Below, piece after piece: positions 34,524-49,235 of a stretch of DNA of 61,691 nucleotides. Origin of the DNA: Candidatus Omnitrophota bacterium (GTDB lineage Bacteria > Omnitrophota > Gorgyraeia > VGKH01); assembly GCA_043819095.1 (NCBI GenBank), contig JBDRFF010000015.1, positions 1 to 61,691 on the forward strand, read 5' to 3'. Position 1 is the first letter of the stretch. Each line of letters begins with the position of its first letter. The notes under the pieces were generated by a model that was given only the letters and a program-made list of their open reading frames with translations, had not been told where the DNA came from and made no database searches. A program made the translations under genes and the position numbers.

Positions 34524-34551
34524 TTGAAAAACAGTAATTTTGTGTTATACT
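34524..34551 (+). promoter_or_regulatory. sigma70-like promoter of the riboswitch/pseudopilin operon
   Basis: TTGAAA (34524..34529), 16-nt spacer, TGT-TATACT extended -10 (34546..34551). Confidence 0.5.
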
Positions 34552-34570
34552 TTTAGTAGGATAATAACTT

Positions 34571-34691
34571 ACGTTGAAAAAGGGTAAACCATCTGTAAAG
34601 ATGGGGCACAAAGCTAAGGACCCCGACGTCCCGACGATAAGTCGGGATTCCGACTGAAACGTCGGAATCGGGGCAGCCTAGCTGCCAGCGT
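34571..34691 (+). promoter_or_regulatory. c-di-GMP-I (GEMM-I)-like riboswitch aptamer
   Basis: AGGGUAAACC-[AUCU-GUAA-AGAU]-GGGGCACAAAGCUAAGG parallels Vc2 AGGGCAAACC-[AUUC-GAAA-GAGU]-GGGACGCAAAGCCUCCGG. P1 acguug/cagcgu closes the aptamer. The second arm gcuaagg...ccuagc encloses a branched insert. Confidence 0.65.
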
Positions 34692-34703
34692 TTATTTTTT
34701 TGT

Positions 34704-34743
34704 GACCCATCTTTTGAAGATAAAAGGATGGGTCAATTTTTTT
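34704..34743 (+). terminator. intrinsic terminator (riboswitch expression platform)
   Basis: gacccatctttt-gaagat-aaaaggatgggtc followed by aattttttt, about 60 nt before the first ATG. Confidence 0.7.
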
Positions 34744-34801: not shown

Positions 34802-35923
34802 ATGAGAAACAAAGGTTTTACGACAATGGAAATGATGGTTGTGGCGGCGATAGGCGCAGGGCTACTTGCTATTGTCTTTAGCATATTTATGCTCCTCAAT
34901 ACCTCTCTTACAAAGGGCTTTAGCTCCATAGATTTAGTAGAGAAATCCCGCATCGCAATGGAACAAATCCAGCGATATTTGGAAAAATCCAGCCCTGAGA
35001 AGATTACCATTCAAAACTGTCTGGGAAACGAATGCAGTGGCCAGAAGCTTACATTCCAGGTTCCTGTGGTTACTAATGACGCGATTAGCGGAACAGTATT
35101 CAACTATTATGGTAACCCTAAATGGGGTGCTTTCTGGACAAAAGCCAACGGTAACTTTGCAACTAGAGAAAACGCCTATTTTACTTTTTACGCAGGTGCT
35201 GAAGGCACTGCAGACGAAGGAAAATTAATTATAAAGGTATGGCATACGGAAACAACCGGAGGAACCCCCGGTTGTTTTCTTGCCGGAACACCCATACTTA
35301 TGGCTGATGGCTCTAGGAAGCCTATTGAGGAAATAAAGGTAGGCGATGAAGTTTTAGCCTATAATGAAGAAACTGCTACGACTCAGAAGGATAAGGTAAC
35401 AAAGTTATTTGTACACGAGGATATTGAAGGATATCTTATAGTCAACGGAAATCTAAAAGTTACCCCTGAACACCGTTTTTACAGCCAAGAAAAATGGATT
35501 GAAATCGGCTCTCTAAAAGTCGGTGATAAGCTGCTTGATTACAAAGGCCAGACTCAGGAAATCACCAGCATAGAAAAAGTTAAAGAAAAAACCACGGTTT
35601 ATAATTTCGAGGTAGAACCATCTCATACTTATTTTGCAGGGGGATTCTTAGTACATAATGTAAAACTCTATGAGAGTGAATTAGCTGATCCTCCGGGTTC
35701 TACCAAATTATTTAGAGAGCTATTTTCTCCCGCAATAGCCTATGCTGACACAACTACAGTAATTGACGATAAAAAAACAATAGTCGATCATATAGATAAT
35801 ATAGAATTTGATGGGGGAACTAATAACCAGACGATAGTCATAGAAGCTACATTTGTTGTAGATGACCCTCAGCAAGGCGAAAATGAGAAGATCTACAAAA
35901 CTACAATTAGTCCTAGGAATTAA
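34802..35923 (+). CDS. prepilin-type protein with an embedded Hint (mini-intein/BIL-like) domain
   Basis: Class III signal MRNKG|FTTMEMMVVAAIGAGLLAIV (Glu+5). Residues 158-286 run CFLAGTPILMADG...VTPEHRF...VYNFEVEPSHTYFAGGFLVHN|V. Confidence 0.8.
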   Translation: MRNKGFTTMEMMVVAAIGAGLLAIVFSIFMLLNTSLTKGFSSIDLVEKSRIAMEQIQRYLEKSSPEKITIQNCLGNECSGQKLTFQVPVVTNDAISGTVFNYYGNPKWGAFWTKANGNFATRENAYFTFYAGAEGTADEGKLIIKVWHTETTGGTPGCFLAGTPILMADGSRKPIEEIKVGDEVLAYNEETATTQKDKVTKLFVHEDIEGYLIVNGNLKVTPEHRFYSQEKWIEIGSLKVGDKLLDYKGQTQEITSIEKVKEKTTVYNFEVEPSHTYFAGGFLVHNVKLYESELADPPGSTKLFRELFSPAIAYADTTTVIDDKKTIVDHIDNIEFDGGTNNQTIVIEATFVVDDPQQGENEKIYKTTISPRN

Positions 35924-35945: not shown

Positions 35946-38090
35946 ATGATGTTTAGACGAATACATAATAAAAAAGGTTTTATTTTCCCCTTTGCCTATT
36001 GTGTCATGGTTGCTATGGCTGTCTATGTTGCTGCCTTTGCAAACAGGGCGCTTAATGACCATAATATTGCAGAGAGGAATCTTCTGTCCCTGCAAATCAG
36101 ATACCAGACCATCCGCGGTGCGGAGTTTGGTATCCACGCAATAAAAACAAACGGATTCAACTGGCATACACATACAGCTGTGGAAAACGGCCCTGTTTAT
36201 GACCTTGTGTCTTTACAAGCGCAGGGACTAGAACCACCCGAAGTAAGCCTGCCACTTGTTACTTTTATTAACACAGATGGCGATTTGGAAGCTCGGGACG
36301 GAAGATTTAAAACAAGGGTATATGCTAGCCCTGTTTTCGGCACCATTTTGCTTGCCCAAGGTCTCGATTCCAGCGGGCAAAATCAATTGCGCGCTGTCAA
36401 ACTTCACTACCAATCGCTATACGATTATTTCCTATTTACCCCGCTTGAATTAGAACTATCTCATATTACCATGGATGCCCAAGAAGGAACAATGCATAGC
36501 AATAGGGATATTATCTTTGGCGATACAGCCAGTATATTGAATGTAGCCGCACTTAGCACGCCTGAGGCAATCCGGTATTATGTAGAAACTTATCTTCCCG
36601 GTGTCGATCCTCTTGATCCGATTGCCCCTGCGGGATATGTATGGGAAGAGATGTACTTCTGGCTTCGCTCTCCCTGGGTTGAGCCAAACCTAGACGGCGA
36701 ATATAGAAACCGTAACGATGGCCATCTAAGCGGCGAGCAAACCGGACTTTTAATGGAAAGCCCTAAAGACCCCGGAAAGTATATTGAATATAATCCGGCT
36801 GCGGGAAATCCAGCCTTGGACCCGGATGAATATCCTGAACTTTACGCAGATTCTTCGCTTATAAGTAATATAAACGGCAATGAATTCCCCAACCGTCTAG
36901 ACAGCGAATATCTCTGGGATAAATACTGGAGAATAACCGCAAATTATGGCACAGATCCAGTAGAAGTAGCAAAAAAATTTACGAACTCAGAATTACAGCC
37001 CGTGGCCTGGAGCAGTTTAATGAAAACTCTTGAATTAGACGATATAATAGCAGAGGCTAATTCAGGAGGCGAAGAAATTGGTGCCTTGACCATATCCGAG
37101 TCTGATTACAAAACTTCTGCCCAAGATAATGGGATATATATTGAGTACGGGGAGCTAACAAAGAAATTTCGTGTAAATAGGGCTGGAGAAGAATATATTA
37201 TTGACCCGGGCGGACAGCTCGTTATAAACGATGAAGTCATCTTCGAACACAAAACCTTTTTCAACACAAACAGCACCAATGAAAATGTAGTCTTAGTTGC
37301 TTATGTAGATAAAATGATTGAAGAAGATTTTTACCCGACAAACGGAATTATATTCTCAGACGGAAAAATCCTCCTTGATAATGCTAAAACGCTACCCGAT
37401 GGCGGCCTGACAACCTTAAGCAAAAGCGCTATCTACATAAAAGGCAATTACAACACTGAAGACTGGCAGCCCTCTGCTGCTATAGCTGCCGGTAGGATAT
37501 ATCTTTTATCTGATATATTTAATTACCCTCAAACGCTGCCGGATACATTCCACCATATTGAGCGTCCTTACGAAGAAGATTTTGTTGAGGGGAAGTATAA
37601 CTGGTATGAGGAACACGAAGCGACTATGGCTAATCCTGTGGATGAAGACTATACCTATGTTGTCTCGCTCATTGGTTATTTTGGCTATATGCCGGAAGCT
37701 CTGGAGAGATGGTGGGATTATGAAAACGAGGGAAGTTTATTCGTGCCTCCTTCTGGCCTGGTTGAGCACAAAAGGCACGTTATCGGCTCTTTAATCAGAC
37801 TGCCTTACGGAACTATTGCGGGTGTAGGAGTATGGGATGACGTAAATAACAGAGGCTCTAGGGAAAGAACCAATCCTGGGCAGGCAGGACTCACCTGGCC
37901 GGATGACATGGGCAGCGTAGAGCCAAAAGATGCCAATAATTATTTCAGTTATGACAACCATTATATTTCGGGTTCAGGTTCGATAAGACCGCCGGGAGAT
38001 TTTACGAATTCAATAAAGTTAGATACTAAGCTCAGGCCAAAAGTCGGGACACTTAATACTTGGACTCAATGGCTTCCTGAGTTAAATTAG
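35946..38090 (+). CDS. giant pseudopilin-like protein (GspK/PilX-like N-terminus, no Glu+5), large uncharacterised domain
   Basis: N-terminus KKGFIFPFAYCVMVAMAVYVAAFANRAL. 714 aa. Paralog of 38858..41335. Confidence 0.6.
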   Translation: MMFRRIHNKKGFIFPFAYCVMVAMAVYVAAFANRALNDHNIAERNLLSLQIRYQTIRGAEFGIHAIKTNGFNWHTHTAVENGPVYDLVSLQAQGLEPPEVSLPLVTFINTDGDLEARDGRFKTRVYASPVFGTILLAQGLDSSGQNQLRAVKLHYQSLYDYFLFTPLELELSHITMDAQEGTMHSNRDIIFGDTASILNVAALSTPEAIRYYVETYLPGVDPLDPIAPAGYVWEEMYFWLRSPWVEPNLDGEYRNRNDGHLSGEQTGLLMESPKDPGKYIEYNPAAGNPALDPDEYPELYADSSLISNINGNEFPNRLDSEYLWDKYWRITANYGTDPVEVAKKFTNSELQPVAWSSLMKTLELDDIIAEANSGGEEIGALTISESDYKTSAQDNGIYIEYGELTKKFRVNRAGEEYIIDPGGQLVINDEVIFEHKTFFNTNSTNENVVLVAYVDKMIEEDFYPTNGIIFSDGKILLDNAKTLPDGGLTTLSKSAIYIKGNYNTEDWQPSAAIAAGRIYLLSDIFNYPQTLPDTFHHIERPYEEDFVEGKYNWYEEHEATMANPVDEDYTYVVSLIGYFGYMPEALERWWDYENEGSLFVPPSGLVEHKRHVIGSLIRLPYGTIAGVGVWDDVNNRGSRERTNPGQAGLTWPDDMGSVEPKDANNYFSYDNHYISGSGSIRPPGDFTNSIKLDTKLRPKVGTLNTWTQWLPELN

Positions 38091-38103
38091 TAGGAGTCAA
38101 AAT

Positions 38104-38856
38104 ATGAAAAATAAAGGATTTTCGCTTATTGAGATATTGGTGGTGGTGGTCGTCGGTATTGGACTAATGGGTGTAACATTTGGTGTTTTTCTCACAGGAA
38201 GAAACTCATGGTCTAAAAGCGAGGCATATATCGACCTGCAGGCCAAAACCCGCCTGGCAATGGACAAGATGGTAAAAGAACTGACTTCGTCTGCGCCCAG
38301 TAAAATTACATTAAGTAACTGTGCAGGCGATTTATGTAGTTCGATAGCGTTTATGGTACCTGTTGCTGTTGACGGCTCAATCTATAATGCCCAAGGCGAG
38401 ATAATATGGGGCGCTGAAGGTTGGGAAGACCTACCATACAGTTATTTTATAACATACGACAATCGACTTGTAAAAGCAGCCGGTGATGTCCAAGGTGCCT
38501 GCTGTCGCACAGGCGGTGTGTGCGAATACAGATACGAGTTTAAATGTGCTTCCTTGGGGGGCAGTTGGCGAGGACCGCTTATTCCCTGTAGCCCGAATCC
38601 GTGCGGCGGCGGGAAGGCGTTTCGTATAAAACCTTTTTTTGAATTTCTATTTGAATCTCCTCTTGCATATGCCCAAGAAAATTTTTGGGTATTTGCTAGC
38701 GATATCGAGGAAATAACCTTTAAAAATCCTCATGCCCCGGCCGCGCCAAAAACAATCAAAATAACCATCAGGGCCAAGAGAAAAACTATTTTAGGCGAAG
38801 AAATAGAAGTGATATTACATTCCACTGTCACTCCCAAAAACAGGGTGGTGAATTAA
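38104..38856 (+). CDS. prepilin-type protein with a six-Cys insert module
   Basis: MKNKG|FSLIEILVVVVVGIGLMGV (Glu+5). Paralog of 34802..35923. Insert: GACCRTGGVCEYRYEFKCASLGGSWRGPLIPCSPNPCGGG. Confidence 0.8.
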   Translation: MKNKGFSLIEILVVVVVGIGLMGVTFGVFLTGRNSWSKSEAYIDLQAKTRLAMDKMVKELTSSAPSKITLSNCAGDLCSSIAFMVPVAVDGSIYNAQGEIIWGAEGWEDLPYSYFITYDNRLVKAAGDVQGACCRTGGVCEYRYEFKCASLGGSWRGPLIPCSPNPCGGGKAFRIKPFFEFLFESPLAYAQENFWVFASDIEEITFKNPHAPAAPKTIKITIRAKRKTILGEEIEVILHSTVTPKNRVVN

Positions 38857-38857
38857 T

Positions 38858-41335
38858 ATGTTTCGATATAATCTATTAAGAAAAAACGACGGTTTTATGC
38901 TGCTTGGCACATACCTTGTTATTTCTGTGCTGATTGTCCTGGCAGCGGTCTTGTTTACTATTACTGTCAACGAACATAACTTAACAAAAAAATCCCTGGA
39001 TAGTATGGCTGCCGCGTATCAAGCGCAAAAGGGCATAGATCATGTCTTAATCGAAATAAAAAATAAACCAAGCTTCTTTACGCATCAGGCTGTAGACCAA
39101 GGTGGCAATAGTTATCTTTTAGAACCACACCCTGACGTTGCTTCTCTTACCCCTCACTTTGGTCAAATAGTTGGTGGTAATTATGTCTCTGATTCCACTG
39201 AAGGGCCCCATTTCAGAGTAAGGACATACGTAGACCCCATAAGCGGTACCGATGAAATTATTATCCTTGCCCAGGGATATAGCAGTGGCGACGAGACTAT
39301 ATCATCTCGTCGATTATTAGTATCCAAATACGTGCCTACTTCGCTGTATAAGTACTTTTTCTTCAGCCCTAGGGATCTCGATTTCTGGGGCGAGCAATAT
39401 GATGCTGATGGAGGAAGCATCCACGCTAATGGCTGGATTATTTTCAAAGCCGATGCGGATTTCTTTAATTTAGGAGAAATAAGCACTGAAAAATATTTTA
39501 AATATTACGTCAAGGGCTACGTCCCTCCTCGCGATCAGAATGCCGGCCTGGACGGAGGCGGCGTAATGAGAACCTGGGAAGAAGTTTTTTGGGGATGGAG
39601 CGACCCCTATTCTATACCAAACGACAATAATACAGGGATTGCGCTCTATGACTATTTAAATAATCCTGATGGCCATAATTATGGCAATAAAGTCGGTCTT
39701 AAGAATACGAGTGGCGGAAACTGGGACGGATTAGACCTAGAGACATTATGCGACCCGAGAGACTATGCTTGTTACTCAATTTATGCCAGAAACACCTCGA
39801 TAAACGGGGTTGATATCCCCACCTGGCTTAATACAATCTATCAAATAAATAAATATGAAGAGCTATCAGGTACAGGCTTCTGGTCTCGTGACAGATACTG
39901 GACTTATCCCGGGCAGGACATAGATGTGCAACACTTCAACAGCGATTCTCAATATACTGACTGGGCAAGCTTTCTCGCTGGTGCTGGCCTCGATAGTATA
40001 GTCAAAGATGCTAATACCGGCGGCATCCATATTGAGCCTCCGTCTATCGGCGGTTCCAGTGAATATGCAATGGCTGCATTTGAAGGAGGCATAGGTATTT
40101 TTGGAACTGAATATCCTGTGGGTTCTGGGAATTGGACTCTTTATGTAATGTTAAATGGTGAGGCGCCGATTATATTACCATTAGATGGCGAAATTACCAT
40201 CAATGACGAGATAGTGTTCGAACATGAAACTTTTACAGATGTAAACAGTGGGAAATTTAAGGATAATGTAGTCAAGGTCAATATCAAGGCGCTTAAAGAT
40301 GCTTTTCCAGGCAACGACGGTGGCCTAACGCAAAAAATAATCTATTCCACAATACCTGTAGCTATATCCCAGGCAGAGAGCATACTAGAAAGCGGGCTCA
40401 CAATCGTAGGCGCTGATAATGTGTATCTTCACGGCAATTATAATACAGGAACCGATCCAGACGATTTCTATGCTGAGGAAGATCCAAATGACACCATAGC
40501 CCGGCCTTCGGCTGTAATTACTGCAATGGATGTATACACGCTATCTGATTTTTTCTACGGCTTCAATGACTTATATGATTCTTGGTGGCCAGACCCCGAA
40601 TACGTCCCTGTACCTGAACATAATTTTAATTATCCACAGGAGTATGATTTTTATTGTCCGCAAGAAAGTTCTGGCTTTTATAATGCGAATTGTATCACAA
40701 CCTTAATTGAAGATCATAATCGGGATCCCGAAAAAACCACGCATTCCAGTTATGAGGACGGCCGAAACTGGTTTGCTGATACAAATAATCCTGATTGTGC
40801 TGGACTGCCTAATTTTTTATGTATGGCTAACCCCGTAATGGAAGACTCTTATTATTATAATGTCGCTATGGTTGGCTATAGAGGCTTTCAAGCTAGAGTA
40901 CTAGAAAGATGGCAATATCCCCTGGATGATAACGGAGACTTAACAGTTGGAAATAAAACAACCCCTCCTCCTCCAGGCAGGTCATCAAAGGAAAGAACAA
41001 TAAGGGGGGCCTTTATCCAGTTGGAAAAAGAAGACTTTGATCCAGAGGAAGTCAATAATTACTTTGATGGTTATGATAATTCTACAGCAAGGGGCTTTTG
41101 CGTAGGTGGCGGGCCTGCTGGTTATTGTCGAGATCCGGACTTTCCTGGTTGGTACTGGGATATGACTTCCGTTTCACCGGGTTCCAATTCTAACCATTTT
41201 AAGTATGAAACTCAATTTGCTCAAGGCGTTCTGCCGCCGGGAAGCCTAGTAGGATTTTCTACTGAAGTAATTTTGGAGCTGGCGAATACTGTTCATAACT
41301 GGAGTTTTCATTACAATCCCATATCTGCTCAGTAA
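38858..41335 (+). CDS. giant pseudopilin-like protein, paralog of 35946..38090
   Basis: N-terminus NDGFMLLGTYLVISVLIVLAAVLFTITVNE. Shared motifs include INDEIVFEHETF, GNYNT and VLERWQ. 825 aa. Confidence 0.6.
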   Translation: MFRYNLLRKNDGFMLLGTYLVISVLIVLAAVLFTITVNEHNLTKKSLDSMAAAYQAQKGIDHVLIEIKNKPSFFTHQAVDQGGNSYLLEPHPDVASLTPHFGQIVGGNYVSDSTEGPHFRVRTYVDPISGTDEIIILAQGYSSGDETISSRRLLVSKYVPTSLYKYFFFSPRDLDFWGEQYDADGGSIHANGWIIFKADADFFNLGEISTEKYFKYYVKGYVPPRDQNAGLDGGGVMRTWEEVFWGWSDPYSIPNDNNTGIALYDYLNNPDGHNYGNKVGLKNTSGGNWDGLDLETLCDPRDYACYSIYARNTSINGVDIPTWLNTIYQINKYEELSGTGFWSRDRYWTYPGQDIDVQHFNSDSQYTDWASFLAGAGLDSIVKDANTGGIHIEPPSIGGSSEYAMAAFEGGIGIFGTEYPVGSGNWTLYVMLNGEAPIILPLDGEITINDEIVFEHETFTDVNSGKFKDNVVKVNIKALKDAFPGNDGGLTQKIIYSTIPVAISQAESILESGLTIVGADNVYLHGNYNTGTDPDDFYAEEDPNDTIARPSAVITAMDVYTLSDFFYGFNDLYDSWWPDPEYVPVPEHNFNYPQEYDFYCPQESSGFYNANCITTLIEDHNRDPEKTTHSSYEDGRNWFADTNNPDCAGLPNFLCMANPVMEDSYYYNVAMVGYRGFQARVLERWQYPLDDNGDLTVGNKTTPPPPGRSSKERTIRGAFIQLEKEDFDPEEVNNYFDGYDNSTARGFCVGGGPAGYCRDPDFPGWYWDMTSVSPGSNSNHFKYETQFAQGVLPPGSLVGFSTEVILELANTVHNWSFHYNPISAQ

Positions 41336-47951: not shown

Positions 47952-49235
47952 TTAGTTTTTGACGATGCCAGGGTTTTTATCTAAGATTCTAAGAAGGGCC
48001 TCTGCTACCTCGGGATCAAACTGGGTTCCGGAGCATCTCTTTAATTCCTCGACTGCTTTCTCTACACCAAGTGCTTTGCGATATGGCCTATCTGATACCA
48101 TAGTATCAAATGCATCAGAGACGGCCAGAATCTTAGCTCCTAATTCGATCTTATAACCTGAAAGGCCGTCGGGATAGCCTTTACCGCTAGGCCACTCATG
48201 ATGATGCCTTATAAATTTGACGGCATTTTTTAAAAACGGTAATGATTTTAAGATTTCCTCGCCCTTGGCCGGATGGGTCTTAATCTGAGCGTATTCATCA
48301 TCCGTAAGTTTCGCGGGTTTCGTCAAAATCTCATCTCTAATTGCGATCTTGCCGATATCGTGCAATAAACCGCCTCTGCGTATGTCTTCTATCTCGGCAT
48401 CTGATAATTTCATCTCTTTTGCTATAGACACAGCGTATTTGGTAACATTCGAAGAATGTTTGAAGGTATAAGGGTCTTTAGCATCTAGCGCCTCGGCTAA
48501 TGCGGATACTGTCCTTAAATAACCCTCCTGAATCTCTTGGTAGAAATAGGCATTCTGGATTGCGATGGCGGTCTGTATTGCCATGCTCTTTAAGATTCTT
48601 ATATCGTCTTCGTTAAAAGGATAACCCGTCTTTCTGCTATTAGCATTAATAACGCCGACGCTCTCTCCTTTAAAAGAAAGCGGCATGCTTAAGATTGAGC
48701 CATGATAATATTTTTCTTTATTATGCGTCCTAAACCAGCTATCCTCGTCAATATCCTTTATAAGAATAGCTTCTTTTTCATCCATAACTTTGCCCGAAAG
48801 GCTTTCGCCTTTTTTTATCCTGGTTGATTCTGCAAGGTCCTCGGGGATTCCTATTGCGTACTTGACAGTCAACTCTTTGTTGTCTTTATCAGAAAGCAGG
48901 AGAGCGCATTTCTGAACATTTAAGATGTGGGCGACATTTTCCACTACGCATTGAGCTATGTCTTTGATCTTATACAGAACCGATATCTCCTGATCGAATT
49001 TCAGCAATAAATTTAATTCGTTTTCATAGAGAATCTTTTTCTCAAGTACTGAAGACGGCGCTTTATATTGCGGCTCTTTAATCCCGGGGATTTTTGACAG
49101 AATCGGCGTAATAATCTTGTGGCCTTTTTGCTCCCCTTGCCTTTCCTTCATCTTTCTGACGACGATGAATCTGGCAAGATTAAGCCCTAACAAAATTCCA
49201 AAAAATAATATTATAAAATAAATATTTGCTGTCAT
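47952..49235 (-). CDS. GAF + HD-GYP domain protein (putative c-di-GMP phosphodiesterase), N-terminal TM
   Basis: HDIGK and HHEWPSGKGYPDG motifs, with a GAF-like region upstream. Confidence 0.8.
   Translation of the reverse strand: MTANIYFIILFFGILLGLNLARFIVVRKMKERQGEQKGHKIITPILSKIPGIKEPQYKAPSSVLEKKILYENELNLLLKFDQEISVLYKIKDIAQCVVENVAHILNVQKCALLLSDKDNKELTVKYAIGIPEDLAESTRIKKGESLSGKVMDEKEAILIKDIDEDSWFRTHNKEKYYHGSILSMPLSFKGESVGVINANSRKTGYPFNEDDIRILKSMAIQTAIAIQNAYFYQEIQEGYLRTVSALAEALDAKDPYTFKHSSNVTKYAVSIAKEMKLSDAEIEDIRRGGLLHDIGKIAIRDEILTKPAKLTDDEYAQIKTHPAKGEEILKSLPFLKNAVKFIRHHHEWPSGKGYPDGLSGYKIELGAKILAVSDAFDTMVSDRPYRKALGVEKAVEELKRCSGTQFDPEVAEALLRILDKNPGIVKN

Follow-up and report, generated by a model that had tools for sequence, protein, structure and literature searches.

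The operon for pilin-like proteins that starts at position 34802 of the window (the whole stretch of 61,691 nucleotides that was analysed) is preceded by a structured leader at 34571–34743. This leader raises the question of which signal its sensor domain recognizes, and how the sensor could decide whether transcription proceeds into the operon. The search with Infernal and the curated thresholds of Rfam matched RF01051 (c-di-GMP-I) at 34573–34689 of the plus strand with 54.7 bits, against a gathering score of 35; the E-value for the whole window was 5.8e-8, and model positions 1–87 of 87 were covered. The same aptamer was recovered again by a whole-genome search. An all-family Rfam scan of the whole window returned three matches, RF01051 and two tRNAs, with no match to the c-di-GMP-II covariance model, and RF01051 was the best-scoring family of its clan for the leader. 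The folding of the leader is also far more stable than that of its shuffles (z = -7.2). The membership in GEMM-I proposed by eye in the preliminary description is thus borne out by the covariance model, and every sequence element that it had named was located where it had placed it. From its sequence, the leader almost certainly carries a genuine c-di-GMP-I (GEMM-I) riboswitch, for which ligand binding is predicted.

The anatomy of the core follows the family closely. The aptamer is closed by P1, whose 5′ strand ACGUUG (34571–34576) pairs with the 3′ strand CAGCGU (34686–34691); in the orthologs P1 reads GCGUUG/CAACGU, with one-sided changes only that keep the pairing. The segment GGGUAAACC occupies 34582–34590, and GGCACAAAGC occupies 34605–34614. 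Model alignment and folding place between them the P2 hairpin CCAUCU-GUAA-AGAUGG (34589–34604), capped by a GNRA tetraloop of the GYRA type at 34595–34598. The 2-bp helix is formed by GU (34584–85) and AC (34608–09), where the consensus has G-C and C-G, so that the second pair is altered on both sides. The AAA linker follows at 34610–34612, and then the P3 arm (34612–34683), composed of AGCU/AGCU, a bulged A, AGG/CCU and CCCCGA/UCGGGG (34621–26/34668–73), the last of which bears an insert.

A GNRA-capped first hairpin and an AAA linker, the latter present "virtually always", are hallmarks of GEMM-I (PMC1950547), and both occur in this leader. The ligand contacts G20, A47 and C92, in the numbering of Vc2, are all matched in the model alignment, by G34583, by A34610 and by the CC dinucleotide at 34685–86, respectively; the A47 equivalent stacks between the two ligand bases (PMC6140456). 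The tetraloop receptor of the second hairpin is absent, with its CUAA and AUG positions deleted in the model alignment. The absence of the 11-nt receptor is the rule for members with GYRA loops such as GUAA and does not disqualify a sequence (PMC1950547). With Vc2 of Vibrio cholerae, the type example of RF01051, the leader therefore shares the full-length match to the model, the P2 hairpin with a GNRA loop, the AAA linker, the three contact equivalents and the position in the 5′ leader of a surface/motility-type operon. It differs from Vc2 in the GUAA loop without the receptor, which is a known subtype (PMC1950547), and in a 41-nt two-hairpin branch at the tip of P3, missing from the closest relatives.

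This branch had been described as atypical, and it is real: in the RF01051 alignment the P3 tip exceeds the model by 41 nucleotides, and the insert at 34628–34666 folds into two hairpins on a 6-bp stem. Hairpin A (34628–48) is the counterpart of the P3 tip of the relatives, and hairpin B (34649–66) is a diverged local duplicate. The insert is absent from the genomes G001 and G002 of the same family, in which P3 ends in one short hairpin; the P3 tip of G001, UCCCGACGUUACGUCGGGA, matches hairpin A except at two positions. A short, plain P3 is found in both family relatives and in most of 93 aligned leaders of the class, among which the distal P3 of the window leader, with 53 nt, is the third longest (median 19 nt). 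Since hairpin B and the outer stem repeat the CCGAC/GUCGG theme, the simplest origin suggested by the sequence is a recent, lineage-specific local duplication, distal to the core. A mobile repeat was also considered and was rejected: short BLAST matches on other contigs lacked the hairpin cores, and no further copy of the insert was found in the window. The insert lies outside the stretch aligned by the model to the core and probably is peripheral, taking no part in switching. It illustrates how far the tip of P3 can grow without loss of the core.

The elements that flank the aptamer complete an expression platform. A sigma-70-type promoter occurs at 34524–34551 of the plus strand (TTGAAA, a 16-nt spacer and a TG-extended TATACT; 10 of 12 matches), is conserved in G001 and G002, and probably starts the transcript near 34558. 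Directly 3′ of P1 there is a U-rich linker, UUAUUUUUUU (34692–34701), shared with G001 and G002 but not with the orthologs of the same order, for which a role as a pause site is possible. The strong terminator and U-tract of the preliminary description were called as a hairpin of 13 pairs at 34703–34735 (5′ arm 34703–15, loop 34716–22, 3′ arm 34723–35; -19 kcal/mol), followed by a run of seven U at 34737–34743 that was evident in the sequence and in the terminator scan; the start codon is at 34802. The terminator begins 12 nt past P1 and has no nucleotide in common with the aptamer. The scan also flagged as terminator-like the hairpin GGCAGC-CUA-GCUGCC (34672–34686) together with the U-rich linker, to 34701; by eye this hairpin was not seen in G001, the one ortholog inspected for it.

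The connection between sensor and terminator would be provided by a complementarity already pointed out in the preliminary description, and it is exact: AAAGAUGGG (34597–34605) is perfectly complementary over 9 nt to CCCAUCUUU (34706–14), in the 5′ arm of the terminator. In dinucleotide shuffles, the 5′ arm and loop of the terminator find a Watson-Crick match of at least 9 nt in the upstream leader in 0.6% of cases. The pairing extends beyond these nine pairs, across one G/A mismatch, by CAC/GUG (34607–09/34702–04). The proposed switching strand spans 34597–34609, comprising two A's of the tetraloop, the 3′ strand of P2 and the pocket nucleotides G-G-CAC, and pairs with 34702–34714; it is the sole strong competitor for the terminator 5′ arm. 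The loop of the terminator, GAAGAUA (34716–22), contains a copy of the P2 3′ strand, AGAU; in the anti-terminator state, where the P2 5′ strand is free, this copy pairs with its AUCU and adds about 3 kcal/mol.

The predicted energetics depend on how far the transcript has grown. In transcripts ending at 34714–34726 the anti-terminator beats the aptamer fold by 3.7–6.4 kcal/mol, with a mean pair probability of 0.80–0.96, while from 34734 onward the aptamer together with the terminator wins by 5.8–8.2 kcal/mol. The ortholog in G001 shows the same pattern, and that in G002 gives a tie. In the full-length equilibrium fold the terminator forms with or without ligand, so that read-through of the ligand-free RNA would depend entirely on a transient trap. 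Neither the aptamer nor the terminator can form together with the anti-terminator, but the two can coexist with each other. Since the anti-terminator destroys P2 and the pocket and blocks the terminator, an aptamer stabilized by ligand can only favour termination.

From these relations a mechanism can be proposed. The transcript would begin near 34558, and the aptamer, with P1, P2 and its GUAA loop, and P3, would fold first. Without ligand, the emerging pyrimidine-rich segment GUGACCCAUCUUU (34702–14) would pair with CAC-G-GGGUAGAAA, read 3′ to 5′ (34609–34597). As suggested by the 5′-to-3′ order of synthesis, the invading strand would meet the pocket nucleotides G-G-CAC first and then zip into P2 toward the tetraloop. 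This pairing would open P2, destroy the ligand pocket and hold the 5′ arm of the terminator until the polymerase clears the U tract, and the operon would be transcribed. Once c-di-GMP is bound, P2 and the pocket nucleotides would be locked and the invading strand unable to nucleate; the freed arm would then pair with 34723–35, and the terminator so formed would stop transcription at about 34740. Ligand binding, the order of folding, nucleation at the pocket and the sign of regulation in the cell are all inferred here. The model also makes a kinetic demand that weighs against it: P2, with its GNRA cap, folds first, and a strand about 100 nt away must open it within about 20–25 nt of transcription.

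The comparison with related genomes supports the conservation of this arrangement. Two genomes of the same family and two of the same order have conserved the promoter, the aptamer, the terminator and the first gene. The anti-terminator is kept in the orthologs, as AAAGAUGGG/CCCAUCUUU in the window genome (G000) and AAAGGGUGGG/CCCAUCCUUU in G001; between the two, one pair is replaced in both strands (A-U to G-C) and another becomes G-U. A covariance model of aptamer plus terminator, built from the window leader and its orthologs in G001 and G002, had matches in 278 of the 401 genomes of the class.

For a wider test, 90 leaders were fetched and aligned, and their terminators were located by a separate, sequence-blind finder; the duplex test set consisted of 74 leaders with a proximal terminator, forming 66 clusters at 80% identity. 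The P2 loop, the P2 3′ strand and 3 further nucleotides of each leader pair with the terminator 5′ arm and loop of the same leader at a mean of -11.1 kcal/mol, against an already high background of -8.6 kcal/mol with the arms of other leaders. No value as low as the observed mean occurred in 20,000 permutations, before or after collapse to the 66 clusters, a result that overstates independence, as the model used to collect the leaders had been trained on this design and related leaders share descent. Under the same limit, an anchored, gapless count gave 7.56 pairs of 12, compared with a high background of 6.94 ± 0.12 in the permuted sets (0 of 2000), and all slid registers were lower. The best upstream partner of the terminator arm was the 3′ strand of P2 in 28 of 66 leaders, followed by P3 in 19 of 66. 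The minimum free energy structure of the nascent RNA was the anti-terminator in 22 of 66 leaders, and in 9 of 66 when a foreign arm was substituted; the full-length fold combined the terminator with P2 in 59 of 66. Bases of the terminator loop, which have no role in its stem, track the tetraloop, as in L043 (GUAAGAAG/CUUCUUAC) and L036 (GCAA/UUGC).

Taken with the nascent energetics and the compensatory A-U to G-C change, this class-wide matching of each leader to its own arm supports the ligand-OFF logic suggested in the preliminary description, whose sign is a prediction. To the mechanism as described, in which the P2 3′ strand pairs with the terminator 5′ arm and c-di-GMP turns the operon off, we assign a probability of about 70% on the grounds of sequence and modelling. 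The switching strand is most likely part of the first hairpin of the sensor, and not of the closing helix P1.

Other explanations share part of this evidence. The aptamer may be real while the terminator is constitutive or otherwise controlled, the similarity between P2 and the terminator being a by-product of hairpin duplication, or of a common bias that makes P2 3′ strands rich in purines and terminator arms rich in pyrimidines. In that case the riboswitch would work by another route, for example RNA stability, Rho or translation, or would not switch at this terminator. Such a case draws support from the full-length minimum free energy fold, which holds P2 and the terminator together irrespective of ligand, and from the strong complementarity of leaders and arms paired by permutation, as a compositional convention would produce. 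We consider it unlikely, since the pairing within each leader exceeded every permutation, one pair has changed in a compensatory manner between orthologs and the terminator-loop bases follow the tetraloop; moreover, under a constitutive terminator the operon would be silent, and yet it has been retained throughout an order and is represented in a metatranscriptome. We regard as extremely improbable both an ON switch and a Cd1-like OFF switch with the P1 3′ strand in the anti-terminator. Most described GEMM-I terminators do overlap the 3′ side of the aptamer and so make ON switches (PMC1950547), and three other copies in the same genome look ON-type; in the window leader, on the contrary, the terminator stands clear of the aptamer, pyrimidines dominate in the P1 3′ strand, the linker and the terminator 5′ arm, no pairing among these three is possible, and the best upstream partner of the arm is the P2 3′ strand. 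Both the ON wiring and the classical anti-terminator at the P1 3′ strand were consequently rejected on these sequence grounds.

The identity of the ligand, which the preliminary description had left undecided between c-di-GMP and 3′3′-cGAMP, can be narrowed by the same alignment. Recognition of the two guanines of c-di-GMP falls to G20 and C92, and cGAMP riboswitches carry A20 (PMC6140456). The G20 equivalent is model position 11 in the cmscan alignment, G34583, which is unpaired and lies directly before the 2-bp helix; it is G in the window leader and its orthologs, so the A20 hallmark of GEMM-Ib is lacking from the model alignment and c-di-GMP is expected, rather than cGAMP, with binding itself a prediction. 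Recognition of 3′3′-cGAMP or another dinucleotide is very improbable in our judgement: the GEMM-I and cGAMP aptamers are near-identical in fold and some natural members take both ligands (PMC6140456), and the class does include leaders with A at this position, but besides the G found here RF01051 is the top-scoring family of the clan and the genome has four GGDEF genes. Over the 93 leaders of the class the column contains G in 85, A in 7 and C in 1, the eight exceptions being L042, L055, L057, L064, L081, L084, L088 and L097; from their sequence, those that bear A are candidate cGAMP-type or bispecific aptamers. The GEMM-Ib cGAMP riboswitches of Geobacter (e.g. Gs1761, pilM) share the fold of the window leader and likewise precede pilus genes, but they carry A at position 20, where the window leader has G, and the pilM riboswitch is an ON switch.

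Among characterized systems, the closest logic to that of the preferred c-di-GMP-dependent OFF switch is found in Cd1 (Cdi-1-3), the class I OFF riboswitch of the flgB operon of Clostridioides difficile. For Cd1 it was shown experimentally that the aptamer and the terminator coexist and that a transiently stable anti-terminator competes with them (PMC9262584). The transcriptional OFF logic is the same in the window leader, where a compatible aptamer and terminator and an anti-terminator that excludes both are predicted. In contrast, the anti-terminator of Cd1 captures the 3′ strand of P1, whereas here it would capture the P2 3′ strand, the tetraloop and the pocket nucleotides (34597–34609), and the genes controlled are flagellar in Cd1 and pilin-like here. 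By sequence and folding, the leader would thus be a new GEMM-I member that works by the logic of Cd1 through a different aptamer strand. Where the control of type IV pilin genes by c-di-GMP has been well studied, the messenger activates them, as at C. difficile pilA1 with its class II switch (PMC6366702). That switch, Cdi-2-4, also combines a c-di-GMP riboswitch with a terminator in a type IV pilin leader (PMC6366702), but its aptamer is of the other class and its sign is the reverse, ON against a predicted OFF here. The sign predicted for the window leader is therefore the less usual one for pilin genes.

The operon downstream of the terminator contains four genes on the plus strand. Gene 1 (34802–35923) encodes a prepilin-like protein of 373 aa with an internal Hint/intein-like domain at residues of about 157–286 (PT-HINT, 8.8e-23). 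Genes 2–4 (35946–41335) encode a 714-aa protein, a 250-aa prepilin and an 825-aa protein; the products of genes 2 and 4 had no family match. Prepilin-type N-termini occur in genes 1 and 3; for the pilin-like first genes N-termini were read by eye, as a strict regular expression undercounts them. The name pseudopilin operon given in the preliminary description is roughly right: gene 3 passes the TIGR02532 cut-off and both N-termini agree with it, although gene 1 falls just below that cut-off. In scans of named genome contigs, the 714-aa protein gave no match and HypE gave only 46–65% relatives, from several phyla.

Gene 1 is 45–48% identical to the genes behind the leaders of G001 and G002, and 33–37% identical to those behind the two same-order leaders. 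Since homologs of gene 1 sit behind related leaders, leader and gene travel together. The orthologs of gene 1 behind related leaders also bear Hint-like motifs, and one has repeats. Within a groundwater metatranscriptome, two assembled contigs are identical to parts of gene 1, which suggests that the operon is expressed in situ, DNA carry-over being another possible source. Different first genes recur behind other GEMM-I leaders of the class: a small protein with the motif REELDFID...KDALFSTGKKL (L068, L076, L051, L080, L031, L100, L026, L082 and L034), small excisionase-like helix-turn-helix proteins (L040, L037 and L079) and response regulators (L105 and L092).

The genome assembly (1.06 Mb, about 75% complete) contains, in addition to the four GGDEF genes, seven genes for T2SSE-family ATPases above the cut-off, and no EAL gene was found in this partial assembly. 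A 427-aa protein with GAF and HD_5 domains (HD-GYP-type), encoded at 47952–49235 of the minus strand, is from its sequence a likely c-di-GMP phosphodiesterase; its gene is found about 7 kb after the operon ends, at a distance of about 13 kb from the riboswitch. Five further RF01051 matches were found in the genome, and their layouts were read from single folds. One copy has the same separate-terminator layout and precedes a secreted subtilase gene. In three, the 3′ end of the aptamer overlaps the 5′ arm of a terminator-like helix, which is the usual ON layout (PMC1950547), and by their folds these copies look ON-type. One of them, L002 (G000:C6:12867-13003), stands before the gene of a 286-aa protein that combines two c-di-GMP-binding domains, MshEN and PilZ, so that a c-di-GMP switch would control a c-di-GMP receptor. 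Of the other two ON-looking copies, L005 (G000:C19:1490-1622) and L004 (G000:C20:16989-17132, minus strand), one is located before a 60-aa Flp-like protein (KAQSILEYSIIIAVI) and the other before a 95-aa Cys-rich protein. In L004, a U run about 175 nt downstream is directly preceded by CCUUAUCGGC, the perfect complement of the 5′ flank, GCCGAUAAGG.

These results establish a well-supported c-di-GMP riboswitch in a groundwater bacterium whose lineage is uncultured, has small genomes and has been little studied, and leaders of this kind are very common in the class. The prediction is that c-di-GMP shuts off a pilin-like operon, with a sign opposite to that of the best-known pilin case, and the comparative data point to a recurring wiring of GEMM-I to the terminator through the tetraloop hairpin. 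A broader reading, to which we give somewhat less than an even chance, is that a large share of the c-di-GMP-I OFF switches of the class use a platform undescribed in the literature searched, in which the terminator 5′ arm invades the tetraloop hairpin from a toehold in the pocket, and the ligand hides this toehold instead of closing P1. OFF designs, for the pilin-like operon and the secreted subtilase, would then stand beside ON designs, for the MshEN-PilZ receptor and the Flp-like pilin, within a single small genome, and one messenger could swap sets of surface appendages purely at the RNA level. If true, the wiring through the tetraloop hairpin would be a compact natural case in which a ligand pocket gates strand displacement of the toehold type, useful for the study of co-transcriptional switching and for riboswitch engineering.
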